From Escherichia coli (GTDB taxonomy: Bacteria; Pseudomonadota; Gammaproteobacteria; Enterobacterales; Enterobacteriaceae), in NCBI RefSeq assembly GCF_041248615.1, contig NZ_CP158426.1: a DNA stretch of 64,000 nt; one strand, written 5' to 3'. This document shows, piece by piece, positions 21,600 to 21,830 of the stretch; positions within the stretch are counted from its first letter, which is position 1, and each line of letters starts with the position of its first letter. The notes under the pieces are model-generated. The model saw only the letters and a list, made by a program, of their open reading frames with translations, had not been told where the DNA came from and did not search any database. A program made the position numbers and the translations under genes.

Positions 21600-21830
21600 C
21601 CGGATACGGCCTACGGTTCGGCACAGACCTGTAGGCATGATAAGACGCGTCAGCGTCGCATCAGGCATTGTGCGCCAACTGCCGGATGCGGCGTGAACGC
21701 CTTATCCGGCCTACGGTTAGGCACAGACCTGTAGGCATGATAAGACGCGTCAAGCGTCGCATCAGGCATTGTGCGCCAACTGCCGGATGCGGCGTGAACG
21801 CCTTATCCGGCCTACGGCACGTTAAACAAC
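21600..21830. repeat. Tandem REP/BIME cluster (two ~110 bp units, each with REP palindromes)
   Basis: Direct duplication of GCCGGATGCGGCGTGAACGCCTTATCCGGCCTACG... and CCTGTAGGCATGATAAGACGCGTCA.GCGTCGCATCAGGC modules between convergent yjjW and yjjV. Confidence 0.85.

Follow-up and report, generated by a model that had tools for sequence, protein, structure and literature searches.

A two-unit repeat array, very probably a BIME-2, between the convergent genes yjjW and yjjV of Escherichia coli

The yjjW-yjjV gap and its repeats

The window, that is, the whole stretch of 64,000 nucleotides of Escherichia coli DNA analysed here, contains a short repeat array between the genes yjjW and yjjV. The gene yjjW (20732-21595, + strand) encodes a glycyl-radical enzyme activase, and yjjV (21812-22591, - strand) encodes a TatD-family metal-dependent hydrolase. 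Both were assigned from their open reading frames, from matches to the NCBIfam models TIGR04041 (398 bits) and PRK11449 (570 bits), respectively, and from the RefSeq annotation. The two genes are convergent and the array is located between their 3' ends. The stop codon TGA of yjjW occupies positions 21593-21595, 3 nt from the first repeat element, and the gap between the two coding sequences measures 216 bp (21596-21811), with repeats throughout. The chromosome of strain NRZ14408 (NZ_LT599825.1) is 100% identical to the window over a 601-nt stretch around the array, and its RefSeq annotation of yjjW and yjjV is the same. The neighbouring gene yjjU (22588-23697, - strand) appears in the ORF list as a frame of 369 amino acid residues with a TTG start, and in RefSeq as a gene of 1074 nt (357 residues). 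Its match to a CBASS phospholipase model is weak and well below the cut-off, consistent with an ordinary patatin-like protein.

The tandem character of the array was established by two kinds of self-alignment, which agree. Tandem Repeats Finder reports a repeat at 21607-21817 with a period of 101, 2.1 copies and 98% matches (score 406). The repeat-pair search gives a 65-nt pair of 100% identity (21652-21716 and 21753-21817) and a 54-nt pair of 93% identity (21599-21652 and 21699-21752), with the members of each pair 100-101 nt apart. Unit 1 corresponds to 21617-21716 and unit 2 to 21717-21817. They differ by one substitution in the tail-side linker (TTCGG in unit 1, TTAGG in unit 2) and by a single-nucleotide indel in the loop of the Z2 element (CAG and CAAG, respectively). 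An earlier note on this DNA had described a duplicated module between yjjW and yjjV, with two tandem units of ~110 bp at 21600-21830, and had expected self-alignment to confirm the repeat. The duplication and the flanking genes are indeed as it described. The units are shorter than it supposed, with a period of 100/101 bp, and the location is essentially correct except for its right end, as the array stops at 21817. The whole array, including a truncated element at its yjjW end, spans 21598-21817.

The order of elements from yjjW to yjjV is truncated Y', linker, inverted Z2, linker, Y, linker, inverted Z2, linker, Y. Each unit contains one inverted Z2-type and one Y-type palindrome, in agreement with the two REP-like palindromes per unit of the earlier note. 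The fifth element, absent from that note, is Y' (21598-21614, + strand), a 17-nt internally deleted remnant of a Y-type REP (TGCCGGATACGGCCTAC), which forms a weak hairpin of -6.8 kcal/mol. It is followed by tail-side linker 1 (21615-21630, GGTTCGGCACAGACCT), 16 nt in length, which extends from the CTAC end of Y' to the GTAG end of the first Z2. The Z2-type REP no. 1 (21631-21667, - strand) has 37 nt and is inverted, so that the - strand reads GCCTGATGCGACGCTGACGCGTCTTATCATGCCTAC; it was located by pattern and by folding and was compared with the Z2 of REP325. Head-side linker 1 (21668-21679, 12 nt, TTGTGCGCCAAC) leads to Y-type REP no. 1 (21680-21714, + strand), which has 35 nt, matches the Y pattern exactly and forms a hairpin of -17.5 kcal/mol. 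The second unit repeats this arrangement with tail-side linker 2 (21715-21730, 16 nt, GGTTAGGCACAGACCT), in which the A is specific to unit 2, and with the inverted Z2-type REP no. 2 (21731-21768, - strand), which has 38 nt, with an extra A in the loop, and was found by pattern and fold. Head-side linker 2 (21769-21780, 12 nt) has the same sequence as head-side linker 1. The last element, Y-type REP no. 2 (21781-21815, + strand, 35 nt; pattern and fold), overlaps the end of yjjV: its CTA at 21812-21814 is the stop codon TAG of yjjV on the - strand. The stop and the last codon or codons of yjjV reach into the tail of this element, covering its last 4 nt, and in the yjjV mRNA the stem of Y no. 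2 starts straight after the stop codon. The array is two tandem 100/101-bp copies of a linker-Z2-linker-Y unit appended to an older Y-type REP.

All four full REPs are imperfect palindromes of 35-38 nt that end in CCTAC, or GTAGG where inverted. Their folding energies range from -14.7 to -17.5 kcal/mol each on either strand. The Y and Z2 patterns had no matches in 100 shuffles of the window, and the fold of the array gave z = -8.2 on the + strand and -7.9 on the - strand, with none of 200 shuffles as good; the palindromes and the fold are therefore beyond chance. In the minimum-energy fold, a single long hairpin joins Y no. 1 to the inverted Z2 no. 2 on the other side of the tail-side linker. 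This predicted hairpin is a REPIN-like alternative to four local hairpins. A pattern search of the 64-kb window found no further Y or Z2 REPs outside the array.

Unit number among strains and changes of the array

The earlier note had proposed a comparison of the REP copy number at this locus among strains. For this purpose, 350 nt from each of yjjW and yjjV were fused into a flank-only query. Of 5,426 complete E. coli genomes, 5,423 gave a match. A sample of 60 records was taken at even steps down the ranking; 59 of these gave an insert length, and the 60th carries an IS1397 insertion. No units (insert of 38/39 bp) were found in 4 of the 59 sampled genomes, one unit (121/122 bp) in 13, and two units in 14, mostly with an insert of 222 bp but with two odd lengths of 234 and 240. 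Three units (322/323 bp) are present in 4 of the 59, four units (423-425 bp) in 9 and five units (524/525 bp) in 15. The sequences of alleles with 0, 1, 2, 3, 4, 5 and 6 units were read directly, so that the comparison proposed in the note yields a range of 0 to 6 units at yjjW-yjjV.

Several of these alleles can be assigned to known strains. Four units are present in the K-12 strains J53 and KMS2005, five in strain '131' and in FDAARGOS_497, and six in NCTC11023. All O157:H7 genomes in the sample have two units. All laboratory strains in the sample (e.g. NEB_Turbo) have a span of 1125 bp, the K-12 four-unit length. The RefSeq feature table of MG1655 (NC_000913.3), in which an official REP number for this cluster was sought, lists only CDS features at the locus. 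The allele without units is a single complete Y REP, which starts 2 nt past the yjjW stop and whose tail supplies the yjjV stop. The 240-bp allele of strain 30859_5#32 has a complete Y in the place of Y', and Y' can thus be described as an 18-bp internal deletion of a Y.

The right junction of the BIME has at least three forms among the alleles, which alter the end of YjjV. In the window and in K-12 the protein has 259 residues and ends in ...NVP*, with the stop inside the Y tail (window 21812-21830). Strains with a truncated last Y and extra sequence have a yjjV of 783 nt (260 residues); the end was translated in one of them, NZ_CM135829.1, where it reads ...VSG* (1290-1330 of the extracted locus). 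This record, labelled 'DH5alpha', has a size of 4.83 Mb, a one-unit allele and the alternative right junction, and its YjjW and YjjV proteins differ from those of K-12 (J53, KMS2005, MG1655). To judge from these features it appears un-K-12-like at this locus, and the strain label may be wrong.

A recent change in unit number is seen with isolate 362 (NZ_OW967178.1). This isolate is near-clonal with the window, with 3 SNPs in ~24.6 kb, of which 2 lie in the 20.35 kb upstream and 1 in the ~4.3 kb downstream, and it has one unit against two in the window. Its single unit carries TTCGG, as does unit 1 of the window, together with CAAG, as does unit 2, and so combines the left portion of unit 1 with the right portion of unit 2. 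Such a unit is the exact product of one unequal recombination or slippage event between the two units of the window, with the crossover in the stretch of ~30 bases, identical in both units, that separates the two marker positions. The reverse history, a duplication and then a separate mutation in each of the two copies, requires three events in 222 bp, in a lineage with 3 substitutions in 24.6 kb. On parsimony alone, a deletion in isolate 362 would be favoured over a duplication in the window strain. The array gains and loses whole units in place, by recombination or slippage between neighbouring units.

The linkers give information on where the units came from. Queries of 40 nt centred on the linkers match at most 3 places per genome for the tail-side linker and 6 for the head-side linker, and in all three genomes checked the matches are all within the yjjW-yjjV gap. 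The linkers are specific to the locus, which argues that the array grew by local duplication and not by the arrival of units from other BIMEs. The TnpA-REP protein of E. coli is reported to cleave and recombine BIMEs in vitro (PMC3333891). The element is also a target for an insertion sequence. In strain L1PEag1 (NZ_CP145513.1) the locus has a single Y, and IS1397 interrupts its loop (GCGGCGTAAAC / IS / AAACGCC). This IS3-family element occupies 3350-4830 of the extracted locus, with an apparent target duplication of 4 bp (AAAC). Insertion of IS1397 specifically within E. coli REP sequences has been reported (PMC1525189).

The same alignment with isolate 362 reveals a second difference, at some distance from the array. 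Collinearity of the window with this isolate is lost at ~26608-26635, at the start of prfC, where the first prfC codons are replaced. Downstream of this point, a frame of 983 residues (36748-39699, - strand) has a phage minor-tail (tape-measure-like) domain and contains a 261-nt tandem duplication of 95% identity (37349-37870). The rest of the window lacks the leuQPV tRNA cluster, which isolate 362 has at a distance of 8 kb. The region has the appearance of a prophage, more than 37 kb in length, that has inserted into prfC. Within the presumed prophage region, a frame of 545 residues (30216-31853, - strand) contains three copies of a 282-nt repeat (30904-31653), with 83-92% identity and start-to-start spacings of 168 and 300 nt.

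Class of the element and other readings of the array

BIME-2 elements are defined as y and z2 REPs that alternate in orientation, are separated by short linkers and occur in tandem copies; their copy number varies among strains, and the copies within one locus are well conserved (Ton-Hoang et al. 2012, PMC3333891). All four parts of this definition are found at yjjW-yjjV. The REPs alternate in the order Y', inverted Z2, Y, inverted Z2, Y, and they are of the Y and Z2 types, not Z1. The Z units have the long inner stem GACGC...GCGTC, and their alignment to the Z2 units of REP325 is nearly perfect. The distinction of Z2 from Z1 for these units was made partly with consensus sequences that we take to be those of the two types. 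The linkers are short, 12 and 16 nt, and the long L linker of BIME-1 with its IHF site does not occur. Tandem copies are present, 2.1 at 98% in the window and 0 to 6 units in other strains.

The general properties of REP sequences are also found. The elements are G+C-rich palindromes of the expected size with the tetranucleotide GTAG/CTAC at one end, they fit the E. coli Y and Z2 consensus, and they are extragenic and close to 3' ends, as the array occupies the gap between two convergent coding sequences. The unit is found in other E. coli intergenic regions, and the 601-nt query that includes the array had matches in 5425 of 5426 E. coli genomes, with a median of at least 32 per genome. The REP/BIME reading of the earlier note is supported by the alternation of Y and Z2, by the short linkers and by matches to the Rfam family naRNA4, and can be refined to BIME-2. 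It is very probable that the feature is a BIME-2 of the Y/Z2 type, a non-coding REP cluster that fills the whole yjjW-yjjV gap, and nothing contradicts this identification. Two other repeat classes were considered and rejected: BIME-1 or RIP, as no match to the IHF consensus WATCAANNNNTTR was found on either strand of 21586-21830, and a CRISPR-like array, as the 'spacers' are themselves repeated and the palindromes are those of the REP consensus.

The array might instead be an ordinary bidirectional intrinsic (Rho-independent) terminator for yjjW and yjjV. Strong G+C-rich hairpins directly past both stop codons would suit this function, and a recent preprint describes REPs inside previously predicted bidirectional terminators between convergent genes (bioRxiv 10.64898/2026.03.23.713779). 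However, 21586-21830 contains no stretch of T or of A that reaches four residues, and a terminator scan found nothing in the gap. A canonical intrinsic terminator requires a U-tract, and the classical terminator was rejected here as it has the hairpins but lacks that tract. In addition, any termination at this site would be leaky and assisted by REPs or Rho, which is already within the BIME-2 explanation. A separate role as intrinsic terminator is therefore very unlikely.

It is important to consider the Rfam matches in more detail. Both units match the family naRNA4 (RF02564) on the - strand, unit 1 at 21634-21711 with 79.1 bits and unit 2 at 21734-21812 with 76.6 bits, and both pass the gathering score of 59.5. 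The + strand gives 54.7 and 54.2 bits, below this score. These two matches are the only ones in the 64-kb window, where no other Rfam family was found above threshold. The RNA naRNA4 corresponds to a single Z2-linker-Y unit of REP325. The latter is a BIME-2 of six units, located between yjdM and yjdN in K-12, and its units are described as Y + Z2 (Qian et al. 2015, PMC4550694). The two units of the window could then be genes for naRNA4-like small RNAs that bind HU and condense the chromosome as proposed for REP325. The strand of the matches is the sense strand of yjjV, so that transcription could occur by read-through, and REP325-homologous sequences have been suggested to share its role (Qian et al. 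2015, PMC4550694).

However, what the Rfam model essentially describes is Z2-linker-Y, so that any BIME-2 unit scores well on it. A comparison with REP325 of MG1655 shows that the Z2 and Y of the window are nearly identical to it, while both linkers differ, including the linker of naRNA4 itself; the Rfam match therefore means a BIME-2 unit and not an naRNA4 gene. A scan found no promoter-like site in or near the array. According to the 2026 preprint, deletion or overexpression of REP325/naRNA4 leaves the size of the nucleoid unchanged and contacts between REPs were not seen (bioRxiv 10.64898/2026.03.23.713779); its authors include Adhya, an author of the original proposal. Condensation of the nucleoid by naRNA4 and HU, which this preprint disputes, deserves little weight, and it is most improbable that the two units are small RNA genes of this kind.

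The duplication could also have arisen during assembly, if a tandem repeat of the source genome had been resolved incorrectly. Tandem repeats can be mis-assembled, and flanks of at least 99% identity were found in two genomes of the collection only, NRZ14408 and isolate 362, with discordant unit numbers. However, the two units differ by one substitution and a single-nucleotide indel, which is not expected from a spurious duplication. Moreover, two or more units occur in the majority of the 59 complete genomes in the sample, which come from numerous laboratories and sequencing platforms, and the whole array is only 222 bp long. Such an artefact is extremely unlikely. Finally, the chance that one of the seven ORFs of 30-118 residues that overlap the array encodes a real small protein is negligible, since NCBI annotation of NRZ14408 calls no gene there, the 100/101-bp unit is not a multiple of three and the frame is lost from unit to unit, the 0 to 6 units and varied junctions among strains leave no conserved frame or product, and REP consensus elements account for the whole sequence; the earlier note had rightly called these frames spurious.

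Possible roles, significance and comparison with known systems

The roles that can be proposed for this BIME-2 are transferred from other REP loci. The hairpins at the 3' ends of both convergent mRNAs might block 3'-5' exonucleases. They might also act as leaky, partly Rho-dependent terminators for the yjjW and yjjV transcripts. The 2026 preprint describes REP325 as a partly Rho-dependent terminator that stabilises the upstream mRNA, REPs as a block to exonucleases, and higher expression of both genes in convergent pairs with a REP between them (Harris et al. 2026, bioRxiv 10.64898/2026.03.23.713779). The same work describes REP effects as context-dependent and does not generally tie terminal REPs to longer mRNA half-lives (bioRxiv 10.64898/2026.03.23.713779).

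A translational effect is also conceivable. The hairpins, located 3 nt past the stop codon of yjjW and directly past that of yjjV, could lower translation by stalling ribosomes. REPs that start less than 16 nt past a stop codon are reported to reduce translation in this way (Liang et al. 2015, as cited in PMC12306157), and Y no. 2 lies within this distance of the yjjV stop. For yjjW the effect is doubtful in the present allele, because Y' is the only element close to the stop and its hairpin is weak (-6.8 kcal/mol). Finally, the Y units may serve as preferred sites of binding and cleavage by DNA gyrase. An enrichment of gyrase cleavage sites is reported for BIME-2 elements, chiefly in the y units and irrespective of transcription; it holds for only a subset of these elements (Sutormin et al. 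2019, PMC6379681).

It may be asked whether the number of units is neutral. The number could be a heritable, step-wise dial on the expression of yjjI-yjjW and yjjU-yjjV, where yjjI-yjjW encode a glycyl-radical enzyme, for which no substrate is known, together with its activase. If this were true, each unit would alter the stability of the 3' ends, the read-through into the gene opposite, the stalling at the yjjV stop or the loading of gyrase, and the numbers in the different lineages (two in the sampled O157:H7, four in K-12-type laboratory strains, five in '131') would reflect selection on expression. The data that bear on it are only that the number varies and that it can change between near-clonal isolates. 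We consider such a dial unlikely.

The feature is an ordinary one, a textbook REP/BIME-2 cluster. The type of element, its presence at this locus in K-12 and its variability among strains are all established knowledge. For the annotation of the locus, identity as a BIME-2 means that the short ORFs across the array can be ignored. The locus is also a well-resolved example of its class, with an allelic series of 0-6 units, a single-unit change between near-clonal isolates and breakpoints within ~30 bp, and it illustrates locus-specific linkers, an IS1397 in a REP, and junction variants that alter the end of YjjV. The yjjW-yjjV gap could serve as a PCR length marker for typing, and the natural allelic series could be used to relate the number of REP hairpins to effects on a convergent gene pair.

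A close counterpart of the array is the yjjV-yjjW REP cluster of K-12 (MG1655, J53), which is located at the orthologous site. The Y' remnant and the linkers are as in the window, and so is the right junction, where the last Y contains the stop of yjjV. However, K-12 has four units in a gap of 419 bp, compared with two in 216 bp in the window, and the units differ at a few positions. REP325 shares with the window array the Z2-linker-Y unit, the period of ~100 bp and near-identical Z2 and Y sequences. It differs in having six units instead of two, in its locus and in its linker sequences. In addition, REP325 is found between co-directional genes of one operon, while the window array is found between convergent genes.

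The likeness to REPIN and RAYT (TnpA-REP) systems is that two REPs in inverted orientation are able to form a single long hairpin. The difference is that the linkers of the window array are specific to the locus, which suggests local duplication and not transposition of units. The BIME-2 of Gilson, Bachellier and Hofnung shows the alternating Y and Z2, the short linkers, the tandem Y/Z2 pair, the position at the 3' ends of genes and the strain-variable number that are found at yjjW-yjjV, and nothing of substance is different. The present allele consists of two full units with an internally deleted Y at the yjjW end, and its last Y runs into the stop codon of yjjV.
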